Notes: generated from the letters alone by a model not told the origin. Counted from the stretch's first letter, positions 4,200 to 64,000 are shown. The stretch: 64,000 nt of DNA from an uncultured bacterium (GCA_963768305.1 CAVYHE010000008.1:16565-80564); one strand, 5' to 3'. Made by a program: numbers and translations.

Positions 4200-5218
4200 A
4201 AAAATATTTATTGCTGTCAATGTTCGCTGTCCTGGCATTGTTGCTGAGCGGCATGCCCGCTGCGGCCGACGATGTGGTGGGTTCGACCAGCGATCCGTCT
4301 TCCATGGGCGGTGGCGCGCGGCCGATCGGCATGGGAAGGGCTTTTTCCGCCATCGCGGATGACGCGGACGCGATGTTCATAAATCCGGCCGGAGTCGCAT
4401 CGCTAAAAGGCCCGCAGGCAATGTCCATGTTCTCCAACCTTCTGGAAGACGTTTATTATACCGAGTTCTGCGGAGAAATGCCTTCTCCTTACGGAACATT
4501 CGGTCTGGGATACTTCAACTCCGCCATAAGCAATATCCCTGTCACCATCAGCAGCACCGAAACTCTCCCTGCCGATTATAACGACAGCGTTCTGGTCTTT
4601 AATTACAGCTCCCCTCTCGGAAGGTTCTTTGAATACGGCCGCAATATCTTTGTCGGGCTCAATTACAAGATATTCAACCGCGGATGGTCGGGCGCGCTAA
4701 ATGAGTCCGGCACGGGTTCGAACGCCGATTTCGGCGTAAAATACATCTATTCCCCTTATTTAAGTTTCGGCCTCGTTCGCCAGAATTTCATTCCATCCGC
4801 CATGGGAGCGCTTTTAACGTGGAACGGGAGCGCGGAAAGCGAGGAAGAATCCTTCATATGCCTGACCAAATTGGGAGTGGCCGTAAGGCCGCCCCTGCCA
4901 TATGATCTGAATTTCACGCTGGATTACGATGTTGATCTTTCGTCGGTCAGCGACCAGCCAAATACCCAGCATGTCGGGCTTGAATGGAAAGTCGATAAAT
5001 TCCTGGCTTTAAGAGGAGGATGTGAGGAAATGCCCGATTCCAATTCCCCCACCCTGACCACCTGGATCCCCAGCGCAGGGGTATCTCTAGGCTACGGCGG
5101 ATTCAGGTTTGACTATGCTTATCGTCCCTTCTATAATAACACATCATTAGCGACGTATTATATCTCTTTGTCCTATATCGGCGAGCCGTGGTTCGCGTTG
5201 AAAGGAGAAACTCTTTAA
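4196..5218 (+). CDS. PorV/PorQ-like (UPF0164/FadL-like) outer-membrane beta-barrel
   Basis: ATG at 4196 overlaps the upstream stop (ATGA). Signal peptide, then the GGGARPIGMGRAFSAIADDADAMFINPAG signature and C-terminal FRFDYAY...YYISLSY strands. Confidence 0.8.
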   Translation: MKKYLLLSMFAVLALLLSGMPAAADDVVGSTSDPSSMGGGARPIGMGRAFSAIADDADAMFINPAGVASLKGPQAMSMFSNLLEDVYYTEFCGEMPSPYGTFGLGYFNSAISNIPVTISSTETLPADYNDSVLVFNYSSPLGRFFEYGRNIFVGLNYKIFNRGWSGALNESGTGSNADFGVKYIYSPYLSFGLVRQNFIPSAMGALLTWNGSAESEEESFICLTKLGVAVRPPLPYDLNFTLDYDVDLSSVSDQPNTQHVGLEWKVDKFLALRGGCEEMPDSNSPTLTTWIPSAGVSLGYGGFRFDYAYRPFYNNTSLATYYISLSYIGEPWFALKGETL

Positions 5219-5224
5219 CGAAAA

Positions 5225-6076
5225 ATGAAAAAATGCTGCCTGCTTGTTTTTTTGATCTTGATCATCGCTGCTTGCCCTTTAAGGGCTTTAGCAGCCCAGC
5301 AACAAGCTGGGAATTTCGGCATTTCTGAAGCAGGCACTCCCGCCAAAAAATATTTTCCCGGGGACATTATCCATCTTGTGGTACAGGCCCCCATAGACAC
5401 CGATACTCTTTCCGCGCTAATGCCTGACAACAGGACGATCAAATTCACTTATGAACCACCCACAAATCTCTGGCACGGCTACTGGGAAGTGCCGCAGGGC
5501 TTTAAAAAAGGCAGTTATACCGCAAATCTTGTAGCAATGGATTTTGACGGAAATACTTTCGAAGGATTGACCAGCACTTTTTTTATCGGAGAACCGGTGG
5601 TTCAGACGGCGGGACTGTCCCCTTCGGAAGAAGCGAGCCTTAAAGAACAACAGGCCAAAAAATTAGCCGCCGAAGCCCTCCTTCTGGCGGAAGAATCCCA
5701 GCAAAAGCTCGGTCAGGCCCAGGCAATGCTCAAAGGACAGGAAAATGCTGCCGCCGTAACAAGAACGGCGCCGGTTGTTGCAGCGGTCCAGCCGGCGGTA
5801 AAACCGGTCAATGCGGCCATCCCCAAGTCTAAGCAGGTCGCCGCAAAGCCAAAGCGGGTCGCCGCCAGGCCAAAGCGGGTCGCCACAATGATAACGGAAA
5901 ACGAAATTCGCCTTGCTTTGATCACCAAAGCGCGAACTTATATAATCAATCATGATTATGGAAAAGCCAAAGAACAATTGCTGGCCCTGCTAAAGCTTCA
6001 GCCGGATGACACCAATATCAAGCTGATGCTGAACAGGATCGAGGCGATAATAAAATCAGAACGCGAAACTCCATGA
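5225..6076 (+). CDS. Exported protein: Ig-like N-domain, coiled/Ala-Pro-Lys linker, C-terminal TPR-like repeat
   Basis: 283-aa ORF with signal peptide; the ...DYGKAKEQLLALLKLQPDDTNIKLML segment is TPR-like. Confidence 0.6.
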   Translation: MKKCCLLVFLILIIAACPLRALAAQQQAGNFGISEAGTPAKKYFPGDIIHLVVQAPIDTDTLSALMPDNRTIKFTYEPPTNLWHGYWEVPQGFKKGSYTANLVAMDFDGNTFEGLTSTFFIGEPVVQTAGLSPSEEASLKEQQAKKLAAEALLLAEESQQKLGQAQAMLKGQENAAAVTRTAPVVAAVQPAVKPVNAAIPKSKQVAAKPKRVAARPKRVATMITENEIRLALITKARTYIINHDYGKAKEQLLALLKLQPDDTNIKLMLNRIEAIIKSERETP

Positions 6077-7383
6077 AAATCAGGGCCGCCATATGCATGC
6101 TCATTTTGTTCTTTGCCTTCCACAGCCTAAGCTTTGGCCAAACAACAACAGCGCAGGAATATTATGATCATGCCACGGACCTGTATCTGACGGGCAATCT
6201 GGACGGCGCATTGACGAATCTCGGCTTCGCCCTTAAGATCGACCCGAACTTTACCGCCGCAAAAAACCTTACAAAGACCATCATACAGGAAAAAGGGAGA
6301 ACGCAGAAGCCGCCCGTCGTTTCCCCTCCCCCGGCCCCGCCTCCGGCAAGGACAGTGAACCAAATAAAACCGGCGGCTGTCATCGGTGGGTCGCTAACAG
6401 CAGATCCTTCGATCTTGTGGGGAATTATCGGGGGCTGCGCAGGACTTTTTATCTTGTTCATTTTCCTTCCAAAAGTTTTGAGCGGGTATCAAGCCCGCAA
6501 GTTGCCTGATCAAGACAGGCTTGACACATGTTTTATTTGCGGGACCAAGCTTGATCTTGGCGTGGAATACTGCCCGAACTGCGGCACCGATATAGGGCTG
6601 AGATTGATGCGGACCGTTTCTGAAGAGCATAAAAAGTGGCTCAGAAAAATGGGCTGGAAAGCGAATCCTTTCACTCTGGACATCCATCCCGAGCTCTTTG
6701 TCGGCCACAGAAAGGACGGAAAAGAGATCCTGGGAAAGATCCAGTCGAAAAGCGGCCATATACTGATCACCGGCGCCATAGGCACAGGTAAAACCACCTT
6801 TCTGCGCTGGTTGACCATACATTTAGGCAGGGAATCCATGGCGATTTTTATACCACGCCCTCCGCAGGACTTCAAAAGTCTGATCAAGTATATCATTGAG
6901 AAAGTGTATCCCAAAACTACCGGTTTTGACGATAAATTCGATATTTATAATTTCAATCAATTGCGGCAGAAGATAAATAAGGACGTGATCTTATTGCTGG
7001 ATGAAGCCCATGAATACTCGGTCGATATTGAAAGGCCCTTAAGGACGCTGGGCGACCTGGACCGCGTCTTCCTGATCGCAGCAGGTCTGCCCGAAACCAT
7101 GGAAAAGCTTAAGAAAGAATATCAGCCGCTGTACGACCGAATGGTATTGAAGATCGAATTCAAGAACCTGTCATTTGAAGAGACGCAGGACCTGATCAGG
7201 GCGCGAATAAAAAGCGTCAATGGAACGGATTTTCGGCCTTTTAACGTCGCCGCCATTGACAAGGTCTATGAGCTGTCACAAGGCAATCCCCGCTCCACCA
7301 TAAAGATCTGCGATAAAGCGGTAGCTAAAGCTATCGATCATGATTTGAATCATATTTCCCCTGAATTGATAGAAGAAGCGTAA
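6073..7383 (+). CDS. TPR - Pro linker - TM - double Zn-ribbon - ExeA-like AAA+ ATPase
   Basis: Signal peptide, TPR, TM helix, CFIC...CPNC, NPF motif, Walker A GAIGTGKT, Walker B ILLLDEAH, and GNPR sensor-II region. Confidence 0.8.
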   Translation: MKIRAAICMLILFFAFHSLSFGQTTTAQEYYDHATDLYLTGNLDGALTNLGFALKIDPNFTAAKNLTKTIIQEKGRTQKPPVVSPPPAPPPARTVNQIKPAAVIGGSLTADPSILWGIIGGCAGLFILFIFLPKVLSGYQARKLPDQDRLDTCFICGTKLDLGVEYCPNCGTDIGLRLMRTVSEEHKKWLRKMGWKANPFTLDIHPELFVGHRKDGKEILGKIQSKSGHILITGAIGTGKTTFLRWLTIHLGRESMAIFIPRPPQDFKSLIKYIIEKVYPKTTGFDDKFDIYNFNQLRQKINKDVILLLDEAHEYSVDIERPLRTLGDLDRVFLIAAGLPETMEKLKKEYQPLYDRMVLKIEFKNLSFEETQDLIRARIKSVNGTDFRPFNVAAIDKVYELSQGNPRSTIKICDKAVAKAIDHDLNHISPELIEEA

Positions 7384-21891: not shown

Positions 21892-23120
21892 TTATGCCGC
21901 CTTGAGCTGCGTTATTTCGGACCTTCTCATAAGTTTCTTTATGATCGATTCAGTGATGGTCACCTTGCCCGACCCCGACTTGGACGGCGCCTCGAACATA
22001 ACGTCCAGCATTATCTCTTCGATGATAGCGCGCAGGGCCCTGGCGCCTATCTTGCGCTTAAGAGCTGCCCTTGCTATAAGCTTAAGAGCGGGATCTGTGA
22101 ATTCCAGTTTCACTCCGTCCATCGCCAGCAGCTTTCCTGTACTGCTTCACCAGGGCGTTCTTCGGCTCTTTTAATATCCTGATCAAAGCTTTTTCATCAA
22201 GCGGGTTAAGGACCGCCACCGCCGGAAGACGGCCGATTATTTCGGGGATAAATCCGTATTTAAGAAGATCATCCGGCAGGACATGCTCAAGCACATCAAC
22301 TCGTATCCTTTCGTTAAGCGTGTCCTCGCCCTTGAACCCTATCCTTCCCTTTCCTATGCGCCGCTCGATAATGTTCTCAAGACCGTGGAAAGCGCCGCCT
22401 GCGATAAAAAGTATGTTCGTGGTGTCAAGCTGGATGAATTCCTGCTGAGGATGTTTTCTCCCGCCCTGCGGAGGGACATTTGCGACAGTACCTTCAAGCA
22501 GCTTAAGAAGCGCCTGTTGGACACCTTCTCCCGAAACATCCCTTGTGATGGAAGGATTCTCGGATTTTCTGGATATCTTATCGATCTCATCCAGATAAAT
22601 AATGCCTCGCGAAGCTTTGACCGGATCATAATCGCTTACCTGAAGTAATCTGGTCAGCACGGATTCCACATCCTCGCCAACATATCCCGCTTCGGTCAAA
22701 GTAGTGGCATCTGCGATGGCGAACGGGACGTTCAATATTTTTGCGAGCGTTTGCGCAAGAAGCGTTTTTCCGGAGCCGCTCGGCCCGATCAAGAGGATGT
22801 TGCTCTTCTGTATCTCCGTATCATCTTCCCTGGAAGATTTGATCGCCTCTTTTATAATGATTGTAGACTGCGACCGAGAGGACTTTTTTCGCCTTATCCT
22901 GTCCGATAACATACTGGTTCAGCATCTCGAACATATCTTTCGGCTTTGGGACCTTTGATATGCCTCCTGTTTCGGGGCGCTCTTGCTTTTTTCCTCCGCG
23001 GCCATTTCCAGGCATATCTTCGCGCACTGGTCGCAAATGTGGGCGTTAGGCCCCGCTATGAGGCGCCTGTCCGGGCCCTTCCGGTTTCCCGCAAAAAGCG
23101 CAGATTATCTGATCGTCCAT
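21892..23120 (-). CDS. clpX: ClpX ATPase (broken by several 1-bp indels)
   Basis: Fragments [50 protein letters not shown] and GARALR occur in order across frames. Confidence 0.92.
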
Positions 23121-23123
23121 TAA

Positions 23124-23756
23124 CTATCCTTTCGTTGACTTACCGGGCTTTATGATGCCTTTTTTGGTTTCAATGACCTCGTCGACGATCCCGTATTCCA
23201 CTGCCTCCGCCGCGGACATATAAAAATCCCTGTCAGTGTCTTTCTCCACCTTGGAAAGCGGCTGGCCCGAATGCTTTGCAAGCATTTCATTGAGCAGTTT
23301 TTTCATCCTTAATATTTCTTTTGTCTGGATCTCTATGTCGGTGGCCTGGCCCTGCGCGCCTCCGAGCGGCTGGTGGATCATTATGCGCGCGTTCGGAAGG
23401 GCGAATCTCTTTCCTTTTGAACCGGCCGCCAGGAGCATTGCGCCCATGCTTGCCGCCTGGCCTATGCAAATGGTGGTGACCGGCGATTTCAGGTACTGCA
23501 TCGTATCGTAGACGGCAAGCCCTGCCGTCACGACCCCTCCGGGGCTGTTGATATACATATTTATGTCCTTTTCATTGTCCTCCGATTCCAGGAACAGCAT
23601 CTGGGCGATGATAAGGTTCGCTATCTCATCATCCATCGGGGTCCCGATAAAGATTATCCTTTCTTTCAGTAATCTTGAAAATATATCATAGGCCCTCTCT
23701 CCCCTGCCGGACTGTTCAATGACCATCGGTATCACGTTTTGCCCTGTTTCTCTCAT
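23124..23756 (-). CDS. clpP: ClpP protease
   Basis: YINSPGG, AASMGA and MIHQPLGG. Confidence 0.97.
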
Positions 23757-23824
23757 AAAATTACCTCCTTATTCTCTCCCCAGATTTTCATGGATCATAA
23801 TCTACTACAACACCAGCTTCGCTT

Positions 23825-23859
23825 CCCTCTCCTTACAAAGGAGAGGGGTTGGGGGTGAG
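23825..23859. repeat. Palindromic element CCCTCTCCTT-aca-AAGGAGAGGG-gttgggggtgag (REP-like)
   Basis: Perfect 10-bp stem immediately after the tig stop codon. Confidence 0.6.
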
Positions 23860-23860
23860 A

Positions 23861-24886
23861 TTACCCTTCCACTTTAGCTTTTGAAATCACAAAGTCAATC
23901 GCTTTTTCCCTTGATAGATATTCTTTGATCGAATTGAGCATATCTTCGGTCGCTTCCTTTTTGAAGTCTTCTGCCGTTCTTCCGTAATGCTGGGCAAGCA
24001 GTTCCATCTCTTTATCAATATCGTTTTGCTCCACTTCAAGTTTTTCTTTTTCAACGATATATTCAAGGGCCAGTTTTGCCTTCAACCGCACTTCCGCACT
24101 GGGCTTCATTTCATCCCTCAGTTTGCCCATATCCTTTTTTACCGCTGAAAGATAAGAGGCGACCGTCATCCTGTTCCTTTCAAGCGAAGCTTCCAGGTCG
24201 TGCATCATTGAGTCTATTTCGCGCTCGAACATTCCGCCGGGGATATCGCCTTCCACAAGCTCAGACAATTTTTTTGTGACACTATCCCTTTCAGCGATCT
24301 CCGCTTCTCTTTCTTTTCTTCATGCAGGTTCGCCATGATAAGATCTTTCAGCTCCTGCAGTGAGTTTGTTTGGCTCACTTTTTTCGCGAATTCATCATCC
24401 ACGCACAAGCTCGCTTTCAGGAATATTCATTTGTTTTGAGTAGTTTTGTTTTATGTATCCTATGGTCTTATCTATGTCAGCGTCCGTGACTTCCGTGGAA
24501 CGTTTTTCAAGCGCAAGTTTCTTGTAATTGCCAAGCTTGATCTCAGGATAAACGTCCACTTTAACGGTGAAAATAATAGGTGATGTTTTATCAAGCTTTT
24601 TCAGCTCTACTCCCGGATAATCTACCGGTTTGATGCCTGAAGCGTTTACGATGTCAGGATATATATCTGAGAAAAGGAATTGTACCGCCCTGTCAATGAC
24701 GGCTTCCTCATGGATATACTTCTTTAACAGGCCGGCAGGGACTTTCCCCAGCCTGAACCCGGGGACATTAACTTCCCTGGAAGCTTCCGTGTAAGCTTTC
24801 TCTATCTTCGGCTCAAGCTTTGAATATTCCTCTTCAATTTCAAGCGTTACTTGATTCCCCAATTTTTCCTGTTTCAGTATTTTCAA
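23861..24886 (-). CDS. tig: Trigger factor lacking the PPIase domain (frameshifts near 24400 and 24290)
   Basis: PGFRLGKVP ribosome-binding motif, DDEFAK and C-domain REKAIDFVI; lies directly before clpP. Confidence 0.9.
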
Positions 24887-38509: not shown

Positions 38510-39738
38510 TTTTTTGCTCCCTGCTTTCTATATATCGCGTCCGCCATTTTTACGGTCCTTGAAATTTCCGCAACATCATGGACCCTTACCATATCGGCGC
38601 CGCTGGCTATTGCCGAAACCACCGTCGCGGCCGTTCCCTCTGCCCTTTTGTCGGGCGGAAGGTCCAGGATCTTGCCGATGGTCGACTTCCTGGAAGTCCC
38701 TATCAATATGGGACATCCCAGGACTTTTAACTCCTTAAGCCGGCGCAGGATCTCAAGATTATGCTCTACCGTCTTTCCAAAACCGAATCCGGGATCAACT
38801 ATCATCCTGCCGGCCGGAACGCCATTGGTTATAGCAAGAGTTATGCTGTTTTGCAAGCAAGAAATTATGTCCGAAATAAGGTCGTCATATACGGGGTTTT
38901 CCTGCATTGTTCGGGGATTTCCGAGCATGTGCATGAGCACGACCGGCACTTTGCGGCGCGCCGCGACTTTCGCTATTTTTCTGTCGGACCTCAGCGCGGA
39001 TACGTCATTTATCAATGATGCGCCGGCTTTTATCGCCGCTTCAGCGACAACTGATTTTATCGTGTCTATGGATATGACCGCGCCCTTGATCCCTGAAAGT
39101 CCTTTGATGACCGGTATAACCCTTTTGATCTCTTCCGCCGCGCTGACAGGTGCGGCTCCCGGTCTTGTAGACTCCCCGCCGACATCGATAATGTCCGCGC
39201 CGTCCTCGATCATCTTCCTGCCGTGAGCAATGGCATCATTAAAATTAACGAACTTTCCGCCGTCGGAAAATGAATCCGGCGTGACGTTCAATATGCCCAT
39301 GATGTATGTGCGCTTGCCGAAGTCGAATCTTTTCCCGCCTATCATCATCGGCTTGGGCTGCCGGTCATTGTTCATAAGAGCCTCATCGATACGGACGGCC
39401 AATCCTTTCAACCCAAAATATTGTTTCTTGAGTTTTGAAATGAGATCTTTGAACTGCTGCAGCGTCCCGAAAACAAGGACATCGGTTGTCCTGATCGAAT
39501 GGTTAATGGTGCCCATCGCCGTTGCCGCGTCCCCTCCGAAAGAAAGCATATCTTGCTTTATTATGTTCGCCTTGGTCACCGGAACATCTTTGATCTTAAC
39601 TGTCCTGAATTCCCCTTTCGGCAGCATTATTGAAATGCCTTTTTCATGGACCTTCATCCTGCGCATTTCCGCTATCAGACCGTTCTTATCAAGATCAATG
39701 ACCGATATTAAATTATTTTTATCCGATCGTTCTGGCAC
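38506..39738 (-). CDS. folP: Dihydropteroate synthase with N-terminal extension
   Basis: MGILNVTPDSFSDGG, GGESTRPG, DPGFGFGK and SRKS. Confidence 0.95.
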   Translation of the reverse strand: MPERSDKNNLISVIDLDKNGLIAEMRRMKVHEKGISIMLPKGEFRTVKIKDVPVTKANIIKQDMLSFGGDAATAMGTINHSIRTTDVLVFGTLQQFKDLISKLKKQYFGLKGLAVRIDEALMNNDRQPKPMMIGGKRFDFGKRTYIMGILNVTPDSFSDGGKFVNFNDAIAHGRKMIEDGADIIDVGGESTRPGAAPVSAAEEIKRVIPVIKGLSGIKGAVISIDTIKSVVAEAAIKAGASLINDVSALRSDRKIAKVAARRKVPVVLMHMLGNPRTMQENPVYDDLISDIISCLQNSITLAITNGVPAGRMIVDPGFGFGKTVEHNLEILRRLKELKVLGCPILIGTSRKSTIGKILDLPPDKRAEGTAATVVSAIASGADMVRVHDVAEISRTVKMADAIYRKQGAKK

Positions 39739-41108
39739 TTAACCTTACCACCTTTTTTGTATCTTTCGTGACCTTTGCATCCTCCGACATCCTGTAGCCA
39801 ACGACCCATACTATCTTTTTGCCGTCGTCGATGACCGGAATGCTGTCCCTTTTATCTATGTCGACCTTTTCATCAACAAAAATATCCTGAAGCTTTTTCC
39901 GCCCTTTCAGGCCGAGGGGCGAGAATGAATCCCCTGCTCTTCTTCTTCTCACGGTCAAAGGCCCGGATATTTTATCATAATCCAGACAAGCGCGGTTCGG
40001 ATTTTTCGCTTTCAGGTCTGATATCCCTCTCGAAGGCAGCAGATCGGCTTCTATCTCAAAGCCCCTTTCCATATCGCTAACAGTGCCCGGTATCGGAAGC
40101 GTGAAGGCAAAATCCCGGGATATCGATCTTGCCGGTTTAGATCTTGATATCAAGAGCTTTCCCTTTTTTATCAGAACATATGCGCCAGGCAGATCTAGCT
40201 CGGCTGTTTTTTTATCCTCATTGCCGATAATGCTCTGGATATGAACGAAAGAAATATCAGCAAGGTCTTTCCTGACATGTTCTATGGCCATTCTTAACAC
40301 TTCGCCTTTCAAGGACGGGTCGATCACCGAGAATTTTTTTGCGTCCAGGCCGATGCTTTCACCGCTCTTGAGAACGATAATGCCGTCCAGAGCTTTCTTT
40401 GCCTGCTCTTCAATAAAACCATGGACCTTGTTGGCCGAAGCGATCATCTGAAGCAGAAGTTCTTTGATGTTTTTGTTGTTCTTTTCAAGGGCAGGTATGA
40501 GGTCTTTCCTGATCTTGTTCCTCAGATATTTTGTCTCGAAATTGCTCCTGTCGATCCTGGGAGTTATTTTTTCAGCTCTCAGATATTTTTCAATGTCAGC
40601 CCTGTACGATCCGATCAGCGGCCGGATGATCTTACTCCCTGACAGGCGGGATTCCTTCCATGCCTTTCATCCCTGTTCCTCTTACCATTCGCATCAGCAA
40701 AGTTTCGATATTATCGTCCGCGTTATGCGCCACGGCTATCTTATCCGCGCCGAATTTGACCGCCGCTCTTTCGAGGAACTCATATCTTATACGCCTTGCC
40801 GCGTCTTCCAGATTAAGCTTTTTTTGTTTCGCGAACGCCGGGACATCGAACTCCTCGACCGCGATGGGGATATTCAATTTTTTTGCGGTTTTCCGCGCGA
40901 ACGCGGCATCAAGCGCGGCATCCTTTCCTCTTATCATATGATTCAAATGCGCAGCGCATAATTTGATGTTCAATCTGCTCTTTAGCGAATTCAATATGTA
41001 AAGAAGCGCCGTGGAATCCACGCCGCCTGAGAAAGCCACAAGGACTTTATCGCCTTTTTCAAGCATGTGATGATCTTGAATGGTTTGCAGGACTTTATCT
41101 TCGATCAT
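39719..41108 (-). CDS. tilS: tRNA(Ile)-lysidine synthetase (frameshifts near 40640 and 40450)
   Basis: AFSGGVDS, AARRIRY, AHNADDNIET, RNKIR and a TilS_C-like C-terminus. Confidence 0.92.
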
Positions 41109-41121
41109 AAGGAGTTGGGGA

Positions 41122-41460
41122 TCAGAAGTTCTTCTTTGCCAATTCTGTGACATAAGGGATGTCAAAGTAATCGCCGTTATACGCCCTGAAGCCGCAGTAA
41201 AGGGCGTATATCCAGAGCGCGAAAATGAAAATGGATGAAAGCGAATCAAGCAGCGCGAAATATATCCCGACCGAATCCAGGAAATTAAGGAGTACCCTTA
41301 CGCCTATCCACGCTACAAGTATCCCGATCCACATGAACATGGCCTGTGTGCCGTGGTAGCCCACGAACGCGTCCTTCCGTTTTTCGGATAATATAATGTA
41401 TATGGCCGGGAACCCCGCCGCATAAGCGAATCCGGCAAGTATCCTGTCGTCATTTGTCAT
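41122..41460 (-). CDS. DUF4870-like small membrane protein
   Basis: Three TM helices; FVGYHGTQA and AYNGDYFDIPYV patterns. Confidence 0.65.
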   Translation of the reverse strand: MTNDDRILAGFAYAAGFPAIYIILSEKRKDAFVGYHGTQAMFMWIGILVAWIGVRVLLNFLDSVGIYFALLDSLSSIFIFALWIYALYCGFRAYNGDYFDIPYVTELAKKNF

Positions 41461-42927: not shown

Positions 42928-43320
42928 ATGGCTGAAAAAGCAAAAGTTCTCGTAGTGGACGACCACAACGGCGTGCTTGAATCGTTCAAGGAAATCTTGA
43001 AGATAAAAGATTACGACGTCGCCGGTTTCCAGTCCGGAAAAGAAGCCATAGAATCCATGAAGACCACGAAATATGATTTCGCTTTTGTCGACCTGAAGAT
43101 GCCGGAAATGGACGGCATAGAGGTCCTGAAAAAGATAAAAGAGATAGATCCCTCGGTGGAGGTCATCATCGTCACCGCTTACGCTTCCGAAGAATCATTC
43201 GCCAACGCGATAACGCTGGGCGCGATGGAATATTTAAGGAAGCCGTTCTTGATGGGAGAGGTTTACGCCCTTGCTGAAAGGGCTCTCAGGAAAAGAAGAG
43301 AAAAAGCTCCGCAGAAATAA
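42928..43320 (+). CDS. Single-domain response regulator receiver
   Basis: VLVVDD, FVDLKMP, VTAY and KPF; AAGGAGG SD. Confidence 0.9.
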   Translation: MAEKAKVLVVDDHNGVLESFKEILKIKDYDVAGFQSGKEAIESMKTTKYDFAFVDLKMPEMDGIEVLKKIKEIDPSVEVIIVTAYASEESFANAITLGAMEYLRKPFLMGEVYALAERALRKRREKAPQK

Positions 43321-44597
43321 TTAATCGATCCCCGCTCTTATTACGCTGTGAATATGCTTGACCACCGGAAGCTTTGCTATTATCTTTAAGCGCGTCTTGA
43401 ACGTCTTTTTCCCTGTTCTCGTGAAGAATAATGACTATCTGCGCGTATCTGCCTTTTGATTCCCTCTGCACCACTTCCTGAATGCTTATTTTTTTCTTTG
43501 AGAAAACCCCCGATATGCGCGCGAGCACGCCGGGATTGTCCGGCGCTTCCAAGCGGATATAATACCTGCTGCGGATATCGCCGATATCCTTAATCTTTAT
43601 TTTCTTTCGCCGGAGGATAATACGGCTCCGCAGCGCAGCATCCGCCCAAGCTTCCCGCTATCTCAATGACATCAGAAAGTACCGCGGAAGCCGTGGGCAG
43701 CCCGCCCGCGCCTTCGCCGTAGAACATCGATTTTCCTACCGCATCGCCTTTAACGAATACCGCGTTGTAATTATCCGAAACTTCCGCGAGCGGATGGCCC
43801 TTTTCCATCAGCGTGGGATGCACTCTAACTTCGATCTTGTCATTTTCAATCTTGATTATCGCCAGAAGCTTTATGACATATCCTATCTCTTTCGCATAAT
43901 CGATATCTTCGGCGGAAATGCCGGATATCCCTTCTTTGTAAATGTCCGCGACATCCACAAAAGAACCGCTGGAGACATAAGCAAGTATCGCCGCTTTATA
44001 CGCCGCGTCGCTTCCGTCGATGTCCATTTTCGGGTCCGCTTCCGCAAAGCCCATTTTCTGCGCCTGTTTCAGCGCGGTTTCAAAGCTGATGCCGTCTTTT
44101 GTCATTTTTGAGAGGATATAATTCGTGGTCCCGTTGACGATGCCGGATATCTCGTTGATCTCGTTCGCCGCGAAACTTTCCCTTATGGCACGAAGTATCG
44201 GTATGCCGCCGCAGACGGAAGCTTCGAAGAGGACCTGAACGCCCGTTTTTTTCGCGGCATCGATTATTTCTTTCCCGTGCTTGGCAATGAGTTCTTTATT
44301 GGAAGTGACAACGTGCTTGCCCGATCTGATGGCGGCAAGAACGAATTGCTTCGCGGGGTTCACTCCGCCGATGGTTTCGATGACGATCGATATCTCGGGA
44401 TCGTTGATGACATCATAGGCGTTTTTTGTGAAAGCCGGTCCCGCAATGCTTCTTTTATCGCGGATATCGGATGCTTTTGCAATTTCAAGCTTTATGCCGG
44501 TCCTGCGGGCGATGAGGGCGGAGTTCTTCTTAAGCACCTTCACGACCGAGGAGCCGACAATTCCCAATCCGATAATGCCTATCTTAACTTTATTCAT
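43321..44597 (-). CDS. hom: Homoserine dehydrogenase with C-terminal ACT domain (3' frameshifts)
   Basis: GLGIVG, FEASVCGGIP, NGTTNYIL, GFAEADP and ACT motif DNPGVLARI. Confidence 0.93.
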
Positions 44598-45620: not shown

Positions 45621-46924
45621 TCAGCTAACCAATTCTCCCTCAAGAACAAATGGACCTGTGTCCGTTATGCGGACATCGACCAACTTGCCGATCGATCCTT
45701 TATTCCCCGCGAATTTGACAAGCTTGTTTCCTCTTGTGCGCCCGGAAAGTTTACCAAGTTTATCGCGTTCAACCAATACTTCCAGCGCCAGCCCTTTCAA
45801 TTCCTGGTTTTTTTTCTCCGCCGTTCTCTCCACGATATCCATCAGGCGGTGAAGGCGGTCCGACTTGACTGCATCCGGCGCCTGTCCTTGCATTTTTTCT
45901 GCCGGCGTGCCGGGGCGCGGAGAATACGCGAAAGTATTTACAACATCAAGCTGTAATTCACTGATCAGATCAAGAGTGCGTTGAAATTGTTCCTCGGTTT
46001 CGCCGGGGAATCCGGCAATAGCGTCAGAGGTTATCGAAGCTTCGGGGATCCTGTCCCTGATCCTCCCGACCAGTCTGCGGTAATGATCGGCGGTATATCC
46101 TCTGTTCATCGCTTTCAATATTCCGTCGTCGCCTGATTGGAGCGGCAGATGGAAATATTCGCAGACCTTAGGCAAGCTTTTTACAGCATCGATGATCTCA
46201 TCTGACATATCCCTGCGGATGCGAGGTGAGGAATCGGAATCCTTTCGATCCCGTCAATCTGATGGACCTTTTCCAATAACTCCCCTAACCCATAACTCTT
46301 AACTTTTAACTCTTTCGTTTTATAATTATTCACATTCTGCCCCAGCAATATCACTTCTTTAAATATCGACTTATCAAGCCCCTTTACTTCATCAATTATT
46401 TCCTTCATCGGCCGGCTCATTTCCCTGCCCCTCACATACGGAACGACGCAATACGAGCAGAAGTTGTCGCAGCCGGTCATTATGGTGATATAGGCCTGGA
46501 CCGATGGTTTTCTTTTTGATGTTCCGTGAAGCGGATGGTCGCAGGTCCCGACAGAAACGATCCTGTTCCTTTTCTCGATAATTTCATTGATAAGCTGGAC
46601 GATGCGGCCTTCCTGCGCCGGTCCGGCAATGATGTCAAAAAATGGAAGTTTTTTAAGGAGTTTTTCTTTGTCTTTTTCAGCGATGCAGCCTATGATGCCG
46701 AGTACTTTTTTAGGATCTCGCATTTTAAGCGAAATGGTTCCGAGCGCGTATCCGATAGCCTTATCTTCCGCCTGCTGCCTTACGCAGCAGGTATTTATCA
46801 GGACAATGTTCGCTGATTCAAGGTCGGCCGCCGGCTCATGCCCCGCGGCTTCCAGAAGCCCGGCGACGGCTTCCGAATCATTTACGTTCATCTGGCAGCC
46901 GTAGGTCTTAATGAAGTATTTCAT
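45621..46924 (-). CDS. miaB: tRNA methylthiotransferase MiaB (frameshift near 46220)
   Basis: TYGCQMN, CDNFCSYC, HLPLQSG, YSPRPGT and a TRAM domain. Confidence 0.92.
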
Positions 46925-54386: not shown

Positions 54387-54834
54387 GCGCAAGACCAAAG
54401 GTGAAAATATTGAGACTTCCGCACGGAGAGGGCGTTCCCCTTCCCAAATACATGAGCCACGCTGCTTCCGGAATGGACATTTATGCCGCAGTTGAAGGCG
54501 AATTGTGATGAAGCCGGGAGAGAGAAAGCTGATACCGACAGGGTTCAAAATGGCTTTGCCTGAGGGTTACGAAGCTCAGGTCCGCCCGAGGTCAGGTTTG
54601 GCAATAAAGAACGGGATCTCAGTTCTTAATACGCCGGGAACTATCGATGAGGATTACCGCGGCGAGGTGGGAGTTATACTGGTCAATCTTGGAAGCGAAG
54701 CGTTCACCGTAAAGCGCGGCGACCGCATAGCGCAGATGGTGATAAAGAAAGTGGAACAGGCGGATATAGAGGAAGTTGAAAGCCTTTCCGAAACGCATCG
54801 AAGCTCTGGCGGATTCGGCCACACGGGGGTATAA
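54383..54834 (+). CDS. dut: dUTPase (frameshift near 54503)
   Basis: [26 protein letters not shown] and GGFGHTG. Confidence 0.93.
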
Positions 54835-56837: not shown

Positions 56838-57195
56838 GGGGGTGTAAGGGTTTTGACGGGAAAGCGGATGCGGGGAACGCGAGCCAAGGATGACAATGAC
56901 CTTGTAAAAATGTTGTCAAAACACAAACGCAAATCAATTTGAATTTGCATTTGCTGCCTAATAAATAACGGCGGCATCGCCTCTTAAGTCCGTTCCGGTC
57001 GGGTTTGAGAAGGTGTTATAATACCGGATACTTTTCTGCCCTGTTTGCGGGACAGATAGGGAATTTTTTCACAGACTAACTTGAGATCCGCCCCGCCTAG
57101 GGCGAAGGCTCGGGTGAAAATCAATATTTAGGATACGCTCGTAGTGGTCTCTGCCGAAACTTTTTCGGACGTGGGTTCGAATCCCACCACCTCCA
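56838..57195 (+). ncRNA. ssrA: tmRNA; tag peptide (A)ANQFEFAFAA at 56929-56961
   Basis: Acceptor stem GGGGGTG/CACCTCC-A with G3:U70, T-arm gtggg-ttcgaat-cccac, tag ORF ending AA with tandem stops; near smpB. Confidence 0.95.
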
Positions 57196-57244
57196 TTTAT
57201 AATTCTAATTTTTGTTGTTCCAGTTAATATGGCGTAACATAAAG

Positions 57245-57413
57245 TCCCACGTCCGGGGAAAAAGTGGGAGGCTCCGCCGAGCTTATCGAGGCGGAGGGAG
57301 AAAAAACGGGAGTTTTTTCTCCGGGGGAGCAGCCCCGAGCGAAGTCGAGGGGCGTTGAAGGGGGCGAAGCCCCCTCAAAGAGGACGGGGGTTCGACTCCG
57401 GTCACCTCCACCA
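57245..57413. repeat. Hairpin cluster with an antisense copy and a direct copy of the tmRNA 3' end
   Basis: cccacgtccg(ggg)aaaaagt is complementary to 57159-57175; four GC-rich hairpins follow; ggacgggggttcgactccggtcacctccacca lies at 57382-57413. Confidence 0.7.
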
Positions 57414-57486: not shown

Positions 57487-60400
57487 ATGTTCATGCAACA
57501 CCTGACCATTTCTTTTATCTTGCTGGAGCTGCTGGACTATATCACATCAGTTGCGTTCTTCTTTTTAGCGCTTTACATTTTACTGAGAAATCCGCGTTCC
57601 CCCCTCAACCGCGCCTATTTCTGGCTGATGGGCAGCTTTTTTGTCTGGAGCTTTCCGCTTTTCATCGTTCATAACCCTTATTCAACAGAAGGAACCACCA
57701 CCCTGTTTTACAATATCAGCTCCATCGGCTGGGCCGCCTTTGCCGGCCTGTCGCTTTATGCCACCGTGATCTTTAGCGGGAATAAAGCTCTCAACCGCTT
57801 TAAACCCTTAGTCCTTATCCCCATCCCCTTCTTTATCTTACTTCACTGGGCCGGTTACTTGTCCGGAAAACATGTTCTTCAATCCTGGGGCTGGTCATAT
57901 AGTTGGGATTATTCGTTCTGGCCAGTCTTATTTTATCTTTATTTCCTGGTTTTCATGGCGGCAACTTTTTATCTGTTGTACGTCCTCTGGCAGAAAGGCG
58001 AAACCAAGCTTATCAGGAACCAGGCTTCCATCATATTACTTACCGGCATCATCTCCTTTGTCCCGGCATCACTAATTGATATAGTACTGCCCCTGTCCCG
58101 TATTTACTTTATACCTAATATCGGCCCTTCCTTCGTATTGATCTTTGCCCTTGGCATAATCTACGCCATGACCCGGTTCCATTTTGCTATATCCGAGGAG
58201 GAGATCAAGGTCGAGGTGGAAAAGGCAACACAAAAGGAGCGGGAATTTTCTGATATTCTGGTCAAAACCGCCCAAGTTATCATTCTTGTTCTGGATCCCA
58301 TGGGGAGGATAGTCAGCTTCAACCCGTACATGGAAAAGCTGAGCGGGTACAAGCTTGAAGAAGTAAAGGGCAAGGACTGGTTCTCGATATTCTTAAAAAA
58401 ATACGATTACGACAAGCTCCGCGATCTTTTTAAAAAAGCCATCAGCAGTATCGAGACAAAAGGGAATGTAAATGTTATTTTGGCGAAGGACGGCCGGGAA
58501 GATCTATACCGAATGGTATGATAAGACATTGAAGGATGGCGAAGGGAACGTGGTCGGCCTTATCTGCATCGGCCAGGATGTCACCGAGCGCAGGAAAACG
58601 GAGGATGAGCTGAAAGAGAGCGAGGCTAAATATCGCGCCATTGTGGACCAGTCTTTTGTAGGGATAGGGATCGCCAAAGGCAATCATGTCATATTTGCGA
58701 ACAATGCTTTGTTGAAGATCTTCAATTACGATAACATGGGAGAGTTTCTAAAATTCCTTTACTTGACCATGTTGCGCCGTCTTCACGTAAAACGATCGAA
58801 GATAAGATGAAGATGGCCGCCGAAGGAAAAACCATTGGCTCAGAATTTGATTATCAGATAATAGCCAAAGGGGGACAGGTCAAGACATTGCACATTGCCA
58901 TCGCTCATGTGTCAATTGGAGGGGAGGTTTTCGCATATTCTTCTTTCCTGGACATCACCGAGCGAAAACAAGCGGAAGATGCATTGCGACAAACCAGTGA
59001 GAAGTTCGCCAAGATCTTTAATACCAGCCCGGATTCCATTACCATCACCCGGCTTTCCGACGGCAAATATCTGGAAGTGAACAAGAGCTTCACGGACACT
59101 ACCGGCTTTACGCCTGAAGAAGTCCTGGGGCGATCGTCTCTGCCAGGCGGCGCAGCGCTTTGGACCAATAAGGAAGACCGTGATCGGATGGTGGCCGGTT
59201 TAACCTCGCGCGGTGAAGTTATCGGCATGGAAGCGCCGTTACACATGAAGAACGGCACAATCATTACCGCGCTGTTGTCCGCACGCGTTCTGGAGATCGA
59301 CGGCAAAAAATGTATCCTGACGATAGCGCGGAACATCACCGAGCGCAAGAAGCTGGATGAGCAATTAAGGGAAAACGAGGAGAAATATCGCACTCTGATC
59401 GAGAACGCAGGCGAAACGATCCTGGTGGCGCAGGATGAGAAATTTAAATTCATTAACAGCAAGTCGCTCGATCTTATCGGATATAAACCCGAAGAATTGA
59501 TCGGCAAACCATTCATCAACTATATATACCCGGAAGACAGGAAGATGGTGGCGGAACGCTATGTCCAGCGCTTGAAGGGCGAAGAGCCGCCGAACAATTA
59601 TTCTTTCCGCGTTATAAATAAAGCCGGCCAGAACAGATGGGTGCAGATGAGCTCGGTGTGGATCGATTGGCAGGGGAAACCGGCAACGCTTAACTTTCTT
59701 ACCGATATAACGGAAAGCAAGTTGAGCGAGATCGCGCTGAAAGAGTCCGAAGCCAGGTATAGACTGCTTTTCGATTCTTCGAACGATATTCTGGTGCAGA
59801 TCGACAAGTCCATGAGGCTTACTGATATTAATTATAAGGCGGAAGAGATCAGCGGTTATAAAAATGAGGAGCTGGTCGGCAAGAGCATTAGCACCCTGGC
59901 GGATAAATTCACGCCGCAAAGTATAGCCGCGATGCTCGCCAACTTCGCTAAAAGAAAACTGGGTATCCCTGTCGGGCCCTACGAGGTTGAAGCATTCGAC
60001 ACCCACAGGAACAAATTATCTTTTGAGATCAATGCGGTTCCGCTCAAAGATAGCGCGGGCAAGGACATTGGCGAAATGGCTATCCTGCATGACATAACCG
60101 AACGGAAAAAGGCGGAGGAGCTGCTAGTAGAGAACGAAGAGAAATTCAGGAGCATTATTGAAAGCTCAAGCGACCAGATATTCATGCTGGATAAGGACAA
60201 CAGGTTTTTGTTGATAAATAAGGCCTCTGCTTCTATTTCCGGAAAGGCTCCTCAAGAGATGATCGGCAAGTCGATATTTGATATATTCCCGGAAAGTACC
60301 GCCGCCCAATTCTCAGAAAACACCAAGAAAGTGTTCGAGACAGGCAAGAGCTTTTCTTTGGATGAAACGATAACCATCCGGGGCCAAAAGTTTTACAGCA

Positions 60401-61231
60401 GCACCAAATTAAATCCTATCAGGGATGACAGGGGAAAAGTGACAGCGGTAACGGGGATAGTAAGGGATATCACCGATCACATAAAGGCCGAGGAAGAAAA
60501 ACAAAAAGTAGCCGCGGCTGAAGTAGAGAAGAAGAGGATAAAAGAACTGCTTTCCATAATATCCCATGAGCTGCGCACCCCCTTGACCCCCATCATGGTC
60601 TACGCTTCCATGTTCTTGAAGGAAAAATACGGCAAACTGGCCCCGAAATACCTGGAGACGGCCGATATCATCAAAAAAGAGAGCGAACACCTGCAGGGTG
60701 TAATACAGGATTTTCTGGATGCGGCGCATGTCGTGGGAAATGTCGCGATAAGGTTGAGCGAAAAACGGGTCTCCGTCAAGCCGATACTTGATGAATTGCT
60801 TTCCGTCATAGGGGACCAGTTCGAAGCAAAAGGGGATCGGCGTTGAAGTTTCACTGCCGAAAGATCTTCCGCCTGTTTTCATCGATGCGGATAAAATAAG
60901 GACGGTATTTTCCAACCTTCTGCTGAACGCCCTGAAATTCACCCCTAAAGGAGGCAAAGTGAAAGTGACCGGAGAAGTGCAGGGCAAGGATGTCCTTTTC
61001 CGCGTCATTGACAACGGGATAGGCGTTGCCCCCGAGAACCTGGAGAGGATATTTGATAAGTTCTTCCAGGTGGATTCATCCATGACGCGAACAGAGGGGG
61101 GCATGGGATTGGGACTGGCTATTGCCGACGAATTTGTTAAAATGCACGGAGGGATGATTTGGGCCGAGTCTGAGGGCCTGGGCAAAGGCACGCAGATCTG
61201 CTTTACCCTGCCGATTAAGGAGGAAAAATGA
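57487..61231 (+). CDS. HisKA_7TM-type membrane sensor histidine kinase with six PAS domains (frameshifts near 58500, 58760, 60835)
   Basis: 7TM N-terminus (RNPRSPLNR), repeated DITERK PAS linkers, H-box SHELRTPLT, and N/G boxes NALKF, DNGIG and GMGLGL. Confidence 0.88.
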
Positions 61232-62304
61232 AAAAAAATAACGCCCTTTTCCTCAGCCCTCTTCTTATTGCCGCCGTGAACGCAAGCTCTCCGGAAGTGA
61301 TATGTTTAAAGCTTGAATATAATAAGCCCTTTTTTGCCAGGACAGTCCCCCTGGTCATCTCCAGCGCATTATTCGCGCTTTTACTTGTGGCCGTTGCCTG
61401 GACCTATTATCTGTGGAGGCGGTCAAAATATGTCCATTGTCCGGATTGTAACGCCCTCAATTCCAAATATTATAAGGTGTGCGTAAAGTGCGGAGCCAGG
61501 TTAAAACAACCGCCGCTGACCGGAGAGCAGAAAAAGTGGTTCGGGACATTCGGCTGGACGAAAAATCCTTTTATTCTGAACACTATCCCGGACACGCATG
61601 TGGACCGTAACGCGGAAGTCCTGCTTATCATAGAGAAACTCAATACTTTAAGCGGACATATCCTCATCATAGGGGGGATCGGCAGCGGAAAGACCATTCT
61701 CCTGCGCTGGCTGGAGAAGCGTTTAAAGGACAATTTCGAGACCATTTATGTCCATCGGCCGCCCGAAGATCCGGACGAATTGATCGATCTGGTCCTGCCG
61801 CTCATTACAAAAAGAACGTTGCGCGGCGGCAAGAACATGGACGCTTATAAATTTTACGAGCTGTGCAAAAATTCCCAAAAGAAGATATTGATCCTGCTGG
61901 ACAAGGTGCATGAATCGCGGGAAATATTCAAGCGGTTCCTGTCCACGCTGGCGAACCTTCCCAATGTTTTCCTGATCATGGCGGGGGATCCCGAGGCGCG
62001 CGAAATGATAAAGCGCAATCTGCCGGACTTTTTTGACCGCATCGCGGAGACCGTCTTCCTAGGCGCGCTCACCCTCAGCGGGATCGAAGAGCTGATCATA
62101 AAAAGAATAAATGACGCGGGCGGAAAGGGACCGGAGCCTTTCACCGCTCAAGCGATCGAAGAGATCCATTCTTTGAGCTATGGCATCCCTCTCAGGGCCC
62201 TGAAGATCTGCGATTGGGCCGTAGCCAACGCGGTGCGCGACAGGAAAGGCTCCATCGAGAAGAGTGATATCCAGGCTTACATGCCGGTAAAGCAAGGAGG
62301 TTGA
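61228..62304 (+). CDS. TM - double Zn-ribbon - ExeA-like AAA+ protein, paralog of 6073..7383, with degenerate Walker B
   Basis: CPDC...CVKC, GWTKNPF, GGIGSGKT and LILLDKVH; start overlaps the kinase stop (ATGA). Confidence 0.8.
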   Translation: MKKNNALFLSPLLIAAVNASSPEVICLKLEYNKPFFARTVPLVISSALFALLLVAVAWTYYLWRRSKYVHCPDCNALNSKYYKVCVKCGARLKQPPLTGEQKKWFGTFGWTKNPFILNTIPDTHVDRNAEVLLIIEKLNTLSGHILIIGGIGSGKTILLRWLEKRLKDNFETIYVHRPPEDPDELIDLVLPLITKRTLRGGKNMDAYKFYELCKNSQKKILILLDKVHESREIFKRFLSTLANLPNVFLIMAGDPEAREMIKRNLPDFFDRIAETVFLGALTLSGIEELIIKRINDAGGKGPEPFTAQAIEEIHSLSYGIPLRALKICDWAVANAVRDRKGSIEKSDIQAYMPVKQGG

Positions 62305-62306
62305 AC

Positions 62307-62687
62307 ATGGCGTATCAAATTTTGATAGTGGAAGATCACAAACCGACATTAGACGCGGTCAAGGCCATCATTGAAGCGGAGGGTTACAAGGCTGACACCG
62401 CGGAAACAGGAGAAACGGCCATCGAAAAGATAACTTCCAAAGAATATGACCTGGTCATTCTGGATATTATGCTGCCCAGGGTGGACGGGTTCGAGGTATG
62501 CCGGCGGGTGAGATCGTCCTTTAAGAACAGCAAGACCCCCGTGATAATGCTTACCGCCCTGGATATCCCTGAGATCGGCAAAAGGAGCATCGAAGCAGGC
62601 GCGAACGATGTGGTCTTAAAACCTTTCAGGCCGGATGATCTGACCGCAAAGGTAAAAAAGTTCATTGTTACCGTAAAGAAAGAATAG
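62307..62687 (+). CDS. Single-domain response regulator receiver, copy 1
   Basis: ILIVED, ILDIMLPRVDGFEVCRR, LTA and KPF. Confidence 0.9.
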   Translation: MAYQILIVEDHKPTLDAVKAIIEAEGYKADTAETGETAIEKITSKEYDLVILDIMLPRVDGFEVCRRVRSSFKNSKTPVIMLTALDIPEIGKRSIEAGANDVVLKPFRPDDLTAKVKKFIVTVKKE

Positions 62688-62862
62688 TTGCAAATTATGC
62701 GCCATTAAGACATAATTCCACCTGATGTTCCTTTATCACGTGACAGGTTTTTTTTGCGACTTCAGCTGCTGGACTGTTTCACATATGCCCGGCAGCTTTT
62801 TTATATGAAGCTTTTCGTTTTTCAGTCCCATGACCCTTGCCGGTAAAGCAGCTAGGAGGATG
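62688..62862 (+). pseudogene. Relic copy of the kinase promoter and 5' end, joined to the AAA gene 3' end
   Basis: TTGCAA...CATAATTCC...ATGTTC matches 57451-57492. The translation MFLYHVTGFFLRLQLLDCFT (one indel) aligns with MFMQHLTISFILLELLDYIT. tgccggtaaagca matches 62282-62294. Confidence 0.7.
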
Positions 62863-62865
62863 AAC

Positions 62866-63243
62866 ATGGCAGACCCTATCTTGATCCTGATCGTGGATGA
62901 CAACAAGCCCTCATTGGAAGCGGTGAAGGAAATTTTCAAGATGCAGGGTTACGAGGTTGAGACCGCGGATTGCGGAGAAATAGCCATTGAGATGATCGCT
63001 TCCAAAAAATATGCCGCAGTCATTCTGGATATCATGCTGCCCAGGGTGGACGGGTTCGAGGTCTGCAGGCGGGTAAGAGCGGACGCCAAGAACAGCAAAA
63101 CCCCCGTGATATTGATCACAGCGCTGGATATTCCGGAGATAAGCAAAATGAGCGCTGAAGTGCGCGCGAACGACTTTATATTTAAACCTTTCAAGGCGGA
63201 AGACTTGGTCGCAAAGGTAAAAAAGTATATTCCAAATACATAA
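62866..63243 (+). CDS. Single-domain response regulator receiver, copy 2
   Basis: Shares ILDIMLPRVDGFEVCRRVR and KNSKTPVI...ALDIPEI with copy 1. Confidence 0.9.
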   Translation: MADPILILIVDDNKPSLEAVKEIFKMQGYEVETADCGEIAIEMIASKKYAAVILDIMLPRVDGFEVCRRVRADAKNSKTPVILITALDIPEISKMSAEVRANDFIFKPFKAEDLVAKVKKYIPNT

Positions 63244-63329: not shown

Positions 63330-64000
63330 ATGCAGCTTGAGATCCGCGGCCTTACAAAGGTCTATGACAAGAAAAGCGGCCTGTTCCCTACCAGCTTCAG
63401 TGTTGATAAAGGGGAGTTTATTGCCGTCGTGGGCCATAACGGCGCGGGAAAATCCACACTTCTAAAAATGCTTGGCAGCTGGATCCTCCCCGACAGCGGG
63501 CAGGCTTTTGTCGACGGCATAGATCTCAGGAACAGGTCCGCGTTCGTAAAGCTGGTGGGATTCGTCCCGGAAACCTCAGATCTTTTTGAACTTTTCTCCG
63601 TCGATTACAACCTCAAATTATTCGCCGGATTTTTTCAGGTCCCTTCTTCGCGTATAGAGGAAATACTTAATGAATTCGGGCTTCTGCCATTCCGTAAAAA
63701 AAGAATTGAAGTTTTGTCAAAAGGGCTCAAGCAAAGGGTAAGCATAGGCCGTTCTCTTCTGGCGGACCCGCCGGTGATGCTTTTTGACGAGCCAACGGCG
63801 GGGCTGGACTTTGAGATGACGAAAGAGGTCTACAGGCTTTTGAAAAGCATACACGCGCGGGGAAAGACGATCATATTCACCTCGCACCGGCCGGAGGAGA
63901 TAAGGACGCTGGCGGCGCGGATACTTGTCCTGCATCAGGGAAAGATCGTCTTTGACGGGCCGACCGAAGAATATTTCAATTCAAAAGAATACAAGGACCT
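63330..64000 (+). CDS. ABC transporter ATP-binding protein (CcmA/ABC-2 type), 3'-truncated by the window edge
   Basis: Manual translation from ATG 63330: GHNGAGKST, LSKGLKQR, LFDEP and TSH. Confidence 0.9.
   Translation, partial: MQLEIRGLTKVYDKKSGLFPTSFSVDKGEFIAVVGHNGAGKSTLLKMLGSWILPDSGQAFVDGIDLRNRSAFVKLVGFVPETSDLFELFSVDYNLKLFAGFFQVPSSRIEEILNEFGLLPFRKKRIEVLSKGLKQRVSIGRSLLADPPVMLFDEPTAGLDFEMTKEVYRLLKSIHARGKTIIFTSHRPEEIRTLAARILVLHQGKIVFDGPTEEYFNSKEYKD

Follow-up and report, generated by a model that had tools for sequence, protein, structure and literature searches.

ExeA (GspA), the ATPase of the Aeromonas ExeAB complex that serves the assembly of the type II secretion system (T2SS), consists of an N-terminal cytoplasmic ATPase, a transmembrane (TM) helix, and a C-terminal periplasmic peptidoglycan-binding domain. 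Here, we analyze a 64,000-nucleotide (nt) stretch of DNA from an uncultured bacterium (GCA_963768305.1, CAVYHE010000008.1:16565-80564; the whole stretch is referred to below as the window), in which positions 57487 to 63243 encode a histidine kinase, an ExeA-like membrane AAA+ protein that has lost the catalytic glutamate of its Walker B motif, and two receivers. On balance, and with little better than even confidence, we read the AAA+ protein (the focal protein) as a conserved, catalytically degenerate membrane component that would act behind a six-PAS kinase as an adaptor or switch, loaded with nucleotide and docked by a receiver, rather than as a motor. The family to which it belongs resembles ExeA in its AAA_22 P-loop domain, its single pass through the inner membrane, and the placement of a domain on either side of it. 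However, the order of the parts is reversed in this family, which is specific to Margulisbacteria: The ATPase is C-terminal, behind the TM helix and a cytoplasmic Zn ribbon. The focal branch, moreover, has neither the periplasmic domain nor the Walker B glutamate. No peptidoglycan-binding family is found among the Pfam matches of the focal protein (E up to 0.01), and no T2SS gene lies nearby, the neighbors being a kinase, receivers, and an ABC transporter (a genome-wide search for T2SS was not made). We regard the protein as a pseudo-enzyme offshoot of the ExeA-like ATPase family that is wired to two-component signaling.

Two systems for surface-protein sorting offer further parallels. According to Haft 2006 (PMC1569441), a two-component system and a tetratricopeptide repeat (TPR) protein of its own, PrsK/PrsR/PrsT, accompany the PEP-CTERM sorting system; the paper makes no mention of the ATPase. 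The best NCBIfam match of the focal protein is the XrtA/PEP-CTERM–associated ATPase TIGR03015, at 62 bits, which is below membership (cutoff, 324.5). The likeness consists in an ExeA-like ATPase tied to C-terminal–tag sorting along with a two-component system and a TPR protein. The differences are that PrsR is a sigma-54 activator, whereas the receiver found here is bare, and that the tag is a C-terminal domain (CTD) of the kind used with type IX secretion systems (T9SS), not PEP-CTERM. PorX and PorY control type IX secretion in Bacteroidota, where the receiver protein is reported to target the machine itself in addition to DNA (PMC4800418 and PMC10951265). There, too, a receiver-domain protein is linked to the export of surface proteins of the PorV/CTD type, but PorX has an enzymatic output domain, and the system has no AAA+ partner. 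On the Margulisbacteria side, this comparison covers the PorV/PorQ-like and CTD genes seen in the cassettes examined.

Degenerate AAA+ proteins that bind ATP without hydrolyzing it are known among the non-catalytic subunits of the origin recognition complex (ORC) and of clamp loaders, where they work in soluble, DNA-bound rings. The focal protein shares with them an initiator-type AAA+ fold, a retained Walker A motif, and the loss of both the catalytic glutamate and a sensor-2–like arginine; it differs in being tethered to the membrane, in carrying a Zn ribbon, and in being paired with a receiver. We found no description in the literature of an AAA_22-receiver module or of the focal pseudo-ATPase.

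The AAA_22 domain of the focal protein (PF13401) was matched at 41.9 bits over residues 143 to 261 (Pfam gathering cutoff, 27). Approximately 39 residues precede the single TM helix (61345-61416), and the Zn ribbon (61438-61494) lies between the helix and the ATPase. The Pfam match to the ribbon is weak; its four cysteines, C71, C74, C85, and C88, are invariant in all 18 aligned family sequences, as is K155 of the Walker A motif GGIGSGKT (61672-61695, residues 149 to 156). The Walker B motif reads ILILLDKVHE: D225 (61900-61902) is followed by K226, encoded by AAG at 61903-61905, where the hhhhDE consensus has the catalytic glutamate. An intact Walker A motif next to LLDKVH had been pointed out in the first-pass annotation of this DNA, and both were found exactly as described there. 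The invariant arginine R271 (within 62029-62043) is kept, GIPL replaces the GIPR motif of the family at 62182-62193, and the N-terminal periplasmic TPR domain is absent, the alignment showing the focal protein to lack the whole TPR block. In an AF2 model (pLDDT, 83.5), the long TM helix is accompanied by a small β ribbon and a lidded AAA+ core. The best Foldseek match of this model is Cdc6/Orc1 (2qby_A; E = 5e-11; TM score, 0.53), with RuvB and proteasome Rpt subunits also found; a profile search against solved structures returned mostly TPR matches, and its AAA+ matches were to Cdc6 alone (E = 1e-5 and 3e-4). From positions in the model and the motifs of Cdc6, we take the GIPR arginine to be sensor 2 and R271 to be the arginine finger.

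The relatives of the focal protein belong to Candidatus Margulisiibacteriota (WOR-1, Saganbacteria). In a comparison covering 40 related genomes and the source genome, 21 other family members were collected (19 relatives and 2 paralogs from the source genome itself), and the Walker B motif is DEAHE in every one of them. It is also DEAHE in 28 of 28 loci from named records, a set collected with a search pattern that itself demanded D[EK]. The paralog at 6073-7383 of the window, with which the first-pass annotation had contrasted the focal protein, indeed reads LLDEAHE and is 35% identical to it. In a tree of the AAA+ proteins, the focal protein is nested within a receiver-linked group, clade A (support, 100), to whose members it is 45 to 56% identical. 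It is a derived, TPR-less branch of the Margulisbacteria family of Zn-ribbon membrane AAA+ proteins, with an ExeA-like AAA_22 sequence and a Cdc6/Orc1-like fold. Its membership in the family rests on homology, the Zn ribbon, and the receiver partner; the TPR domain, the PorV neighbor, and the catalytic motif are absent.

Six further sequences share the absence of the N-terminal TPR block. The closest, P0001, is found on three other contigs, is 78% identical to the focal protein, has the same length of 358 amino acids (aa), and reads DKAQE in Walker B; its JGI name is "type II secretory pathway predicted ATPase ExeA." The AAA+ protein of the metagenome contig L031 (70% identical) reads DSMQD, and P0153 (67%) reads DSTQE. 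P0154 (63%) has kept the glutamate (DEVQE), and the deepest short forms, P0165 and P0167 (49 and 47%), both read DDMHE. For P0001 and L031, the missing block is evident in the alignment, and P0153, P0154, P0165, and P0167 are, at 349 to 370 aa, as short as the focal protein. GIPL or GVPL instead of GIPR, together with an altered AGLP motif, occurs in the five closest of the seven TPR-less members. This clade has no other member in 65 genomes of the class, where the next best match is 55% identical; P0001 used as a query on genome contigs found no relative, and a metagenome scan for TPR-less relatives yielded L031 only. In the tree, the focal trio forms a clade (SH-aLRT support, 100) on a long stem of 0.62, inside clade A. 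Judging by the pattern among the seven short forms, it looks as though the TPR block was lost first, then the GIPR arginine, and then the Walker B glutamate.

When compared with L031, the AAA+ gene has a ratio of nonsynonymous to synonymous substitution rates (dN/dS) of 0.30; the values of the receiver and of the neighboring ABC transporter gene are 0.21 and 0.11, respectively. By this measure, the AAA+ protein is maintained by purifying selection, under a constraint that is somewhat looser. Because orthologs read DKAQE, DSMQD, and DSTQE and the dN/dS ratio is 0.30, we judge K226 to be genuine and the protein to be a conserved, putative pseudo-ATPase rather than the product of a base-calling error or of a decaying gene.

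The canonical cassette of the family begins with one or two genes for very large proteins with a Por_Secre_tail/FlgD_ig C-terminal domain, followed by a PorV/PorQ-family barrel fused to TPR repeats (PorV_fam, 147.9 bits; cutoff, 90) and by the AAA+ gene itself (TPR-TM-Zn-ribbon-AAA_22); a translationally coupled gene for a single-domain receiver comes fourth in two of the three clades. The PorV-TPR gene is present in 18 of the 28 named-record loci, several of which are cut. The focal gene has no PorV/PorQ-TPR and CTD genes upstream; its upstream neighbor is the kinase. Descent from a PorV/CTD surface-protein cassette had been overlooked in the earlier reading of this locus, as had three frameshifts in the kinase.

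What the focal protein has in common with much of its family is the receiver. In 10 of 19 related loci, and likewise on L031, the next gene downstream, on the same strand, encodes a receiver. The AAA+ tree contains 47 rows, 43 of them different. Of the 18 rows in clade A, 11 have a receiver, 2 lack one, and 5 are proteins without visible gene context, so that the receiver is downstream in 11 of the 13 clade-A loci whose context is visible. Clade B has eight rows (six with a receiver and two protein only), and 19 of the other 21 rows, both intact paralogs from the source genome included, are without a receiver. In a tree built from 17 receivers, clades A and B separate again (support, 99), and four sister pairs of the AAA+ tree reappear; the congruence of the two trees indicates that both genes were inherited together as an old module. 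Family members with an intact DEAHE motif have the same receiver, and so the coupling is not special to the pseudo-ATPase. The link between receiver and pseudo-ATPase proposed in the first-pass annotation thus stands as an AAA+-receiver module but not as a feature exclusive to the degenerate protein.

Receiver 1 overlaps or abuts the stop codon of the AAA+ gene, and the start of the latter overlaps the kinase stop codon as ATGA (61228-61231), in agreement with the tight linkage noted previously; kinase and AAA+ gene are thereby translationally coupled. Both receivers contain Response_reg and nothing else, as had been claimed, and have the residues needed for phosphorylation (acidic pocket, acceptor Asp, Thr/Ser, and Lys), with D12, D55, T85, and K107 in place. 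All 17 aligned receivers retain D12, D55, K107, and P108. Sequence comparison identifies receiver 2 as a tandem duplicate of receiver 1. The duplicated segment carries ~30 nt of the AAA+ 3′ end and the AGGAGG ribosome-binding site: 62838-62870 matches 62282-62311 with a local alignment score of 44 (maximum in 200 shuffles, 22). Since the duplication carried the ribosome-binding site along, translation of the receivers would begin with the ATG of MAYQ/MADP rather than with the TTG/ATG upstream of it; the true start of receiver 1 is therefore likely ATG 62307, behind the AGGAGG site within the 3′ end of the AAA+ gene. On L031, a single receiver is followed by the same ABC transporter. The genome contains 13 receiver (REC) domains in all. 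A third stand-alone receiver gene is found in the window at 42928-43320 (130 aa; Response_reg, 108 bits).

The kinase contains six PAS domains, as the earlier reading had it, along with an H-box and HATPase_c. It is not a single gene in the assembly, where it lies in four open reading frames (ORFs) in alternating frames (57487-58521, 58472-58810, 58807-60846, and 60959-61231), and its domain content was read across three frameshifts. Orthologs P0294 to P0297 are intact, with 980 to 1364 aa, and 61 to 69% identical over the membrane domain (residues 1 to 250). P0294 shares with the focal kinase the membrane domain (69%) and two central PAS domains, but the PAS domains on either side of these and the transmitter core are different; its identity to the third kinase piece (58807-60846) is 47% overall and ~85 to 90% over the two central PAS domains. 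This mosaic indicates module shuffling within the kinase family. With the third piece as the query, long homologs were sought as well, but the search returned mostly unrelated multi-PAS proteins, with identity of at most 35%.

The kinase is not a regular part of the module. No kinase is present in any of the eight related loci of 18 kb, and among 28 further loci, there is one with a kinase, 2 kb away behind two unrelated genes. In two genomes, the relatives of the kinase itself form plain kinase-receiver pairs without an AAA+ gene. The first-pass annotation had described a signaling module of kinase, AAA+ protein, and receivers and had suggested searching related genomes for this gene order: The analysis bears out the pseudo-ATPase and its link with a receiver, while the order kinase-AAA+-receiver is not conserved in the loci compared and may be specific to this lineage. 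In the one locus with a kinase nearby (L037, 3107-7232), a kinase with HisKA_7TM, GAF, and PAS domains, a receiver, and a FIST-domain protein are found 2 kb downstream of the AAA+-receiver pair, from which a methyltransferase and a KAS III–like gene separate the kinase.

Our preferred reading, the receiver-docked adaptor or switch, would work as follows. The multi-pass six-PAS kinase would phosphorylate receiver 1 and perhaps receiver 2, a phosphotransfer that we propose because the genes are adjacent; the relatives of the kinase are paired with other receivers. The phosphorylated receiver would dock on the membrane-tethered AAA+ domain, which would bind ATP without turning it over and so serve as a nucleotide-loaded adaptor or switch. 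In canonical members, the same receiver may adjust a true motor, one that extends to the PorV-TPR barrel through its periplasmic TPR domain. Because the focal branch has no periplasmic domain, its output, and with it any downstream target, would be cytoplasmic or within the membrane.

Several observations weigh against this reading. The dN/dS ratio of the AAA+ gene exceeds that of the ABC neighbor, which speaks for some relaxation. The loss of the glutamate is not uniform in the TPR-less clade, where P0154 keeps it and two members have aspartate. The glutamate of DKVHE, E229, which lies downstream of the lost one, is retained and might allow residual hydrolysis. The labels sensor 2 and arginine finger derive from placement in a predicted model. 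Adjacency of the kinase to the AAA+ gene is seen in this genome only; L031 ends inside its AAA+ gene, and P0001, P0153, P0154, P0165, and P0167 entered the comparison as protein sequences. Last, the binding of the receiver to the AAA+ protein and its phosphorylation by the kinase are both predictions.

Another possibility, attractive but in our view unlikely, is the second idea of the first-pass annotation, that the pseudo-ATPase is a regulatory subunit; it would co-assemble with one or both DEAHE paralogs of the same genome. It would lend them its arginine finger and a phospho-receiver input and so place PorV/CTD cassettes under two-component control. There are two such paralogs, the one at 6073-7383 and another outside the window (G000:C8:8514-9365), and both are intact and fall in the receiver-less part of the tree; no clade A member with DEAHE was found in this genome among the genomes searched. 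Also in favor, Walker A and R271 are kept in the focal protein while the Walker B glutamate is lost. However, the periplasmic TPR domain of canonical members is missing from it, its identity to the two paralogs is just 35 to 38%, and other genomes hold receiver-linked and receiver-less cassettes side by side with no hint of mixed rings. A broader version of the same thought, to which we give similarly low credence, is that Margulisbacteria mount CTD-tagged surface proteins via a hitherto undescribed pathway in which a barrel of the PorV type works with an inverted ExeA-like AAA+ protein and which a dedicated single-domain receiver switches from the cytoplasm, the focal protein being a hydrolysis-dead docking subunit that brings the receiver-less cassettes under the six-PAS kinase.

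It is less probable still that the protein is a working ATPase acting like its canonical relatives, with E229 or a partner protein supplying the catalytic base. Nearly all family members have E229, among them three of the four sequences with lysine or serine in Walker B, and Walker A is intact. Yet, the glutamate position drifts freely (K, K, S, and S) in this clade only, where the GIPR arginine, the AGLP motif, and the TPR domain have also been lost, and the stem branch is long, a combination that fits release from catalytic constraint.

The frameshifts in the kinase and the broken Walker B motif could also be signs of pseudogenization of a locus that is eroding as a whole, and the raised dN/dS ratio of the AAA+ gene would suit such a relic. 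We consider this improbable, chiefly in view of the state of the assembly. The three single-base frameshifts of the kinase are located at CCGGG near 58495, AAAA at 58750-58753, and GGGG near 60831. When 68 other ORFs of the window were scanned with Pfam, housekeeping genes were found to be cut in the same way: clpX (at least two pieces), tig, the gene for trigger factor (three pieces), tilS, and a miaB-like radical SAM gene; homoserine dehydrogenase is split from its ACT domain, and purD, dut, trpC, and folK lack their N-termini. Split or truncated housekeeping genes are located at 21892-24886, 39719-41249, 45621-46924, 43286-44597, and 54505-54834 of the window. Since clpX, tig, and tilS are broken too and the kinase orthologs are intact, the kinase frameshifts are likely assembly errors. 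An alternative genetic code was considered as a cause of the breaks and rejected: The breaks shift the frame rather than place a stop within it, and each of the three stop codons is in use. The AAA+ ORF, for its part, is intact and of similar length (336 to 360 aa) in five lineages, with the dN/dS ratio given above. That the lysine codon itself is a base-calling error, which the first-pass annotation had named in advance as a possible refutation, has next to no probability even in this error-prone assembly, given that the errors seen are homopolymer indels and not substitutions, that a change from DEAHE to DKVHE needs at least two substitutions, and that P0001, on other contigs, also has lysine and two further orthologs have serine.

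If the receiver-docked adaptor or switch is the correct reading, the family provides a natural series from a membrane motor ATPase to a signaling pseudo-enzyme, from TPR-bearing DEAHE proteins through TPR-less forms with DD or DE to forms with serine or lysine. The co-inheritance of a bare receiver and an ExeA-like ATPase throughout an entire bacterial class also makes the ATPase a concrete candidate for what output-less response regulators act on, proteins for which a partner is seldom known. Two-component signaling would then be tied to a PorV/CTD cassette outside Bacteroidota, in a phylum without cultured members. As the assembly has many homopolymer indels, broken genes in it should not be taken as biology. 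The features of the locus and the intact paralog in the window are listed in Table 1.

Table 1. Coordinates of the kinase pieces, the AAA+ gene, its neighbors, and the intact paralog within the window.
Feature	Position	Strand	Evidence and remarks
Kinase piece 1: multi-pass membrane N-terminus and start of PAS 1	57487..58521	+	PAS and PAS_9 matches cut at ORF end
Kinase piece 2: end of PAS 1 and start of PAS 2	58490..58810	+	PAS_9 profile positions 74-103 continue the match of piece 1
Kinase piece 3: rest of PAS 2, PAS 3-6, HisKA	58753..60846	+	H-box SHELRTPL, 60562-60585
Kinase piece 4: HATPase_c (78 bits)	60815..61231	+	Frame open 60815-61231; stop overlaps AAA+ start
Membrane Zn-ribbon AAA+ putative pseudo-ATPase, 358 aa	61228..62304	+	Pfam, alignment, AF2 model
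Receiver 1, single-domain REC, 128 aa	62301..62687	+	Response_reg, 105.9 bits; ortholog of AAA-linked receivers
Receiver 2, single-domain REC, 137 aa	62830..63243	+	66% identical to receiver 1
ABC transporter ATPase, runs off the window	63330..64000	+	Follows the AAA+-REC pair on L031 too, where the copy is 93.7% identical
Intact paralog (TPR, TM helix, Zn ribbon, AAA_22, LLDEAHE) in a PorV-type cassette, no receiver gene	6073..7383	+	Pfam, alignment, tree

Upstream of the intact paralog, its cassette comprises a collagen-repeat protein (2-1786), a CTD-tagged surface-protein gene (~3087-4199) spread over several frames, and a PorV-family barrel (3815-5218), the match of which is weak (55 bits; cutoff, 90). 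Family members 38% identical to the focal protein were also found in three metagenome-assembled genomes labeled archaeal (L044, L045, and L046; Altiarchaeota, Methanobacteriota, and an uncultured archaeon). They form a long-branched clade of their own and may represent mis-binned contigs or transfer.

The locus is not a compositionally foreign island, a possibility rejected because its GC content is 0.47 to 0.51 throughout, compared to 0.49 upstream. Just before the kinase, at 57382-57410, lies a second copy of the 3′ end of transfer-messenger RNA (tmRNA), which is 29 nt long (24 of 29 positions identical) and ends in CCA. It is located ~185 nt past the real tmRNA gene (56838-57198), matches its 3′ end with a score of 33 (maximum in 200 shuffles, 27), and may be an old integration scar.

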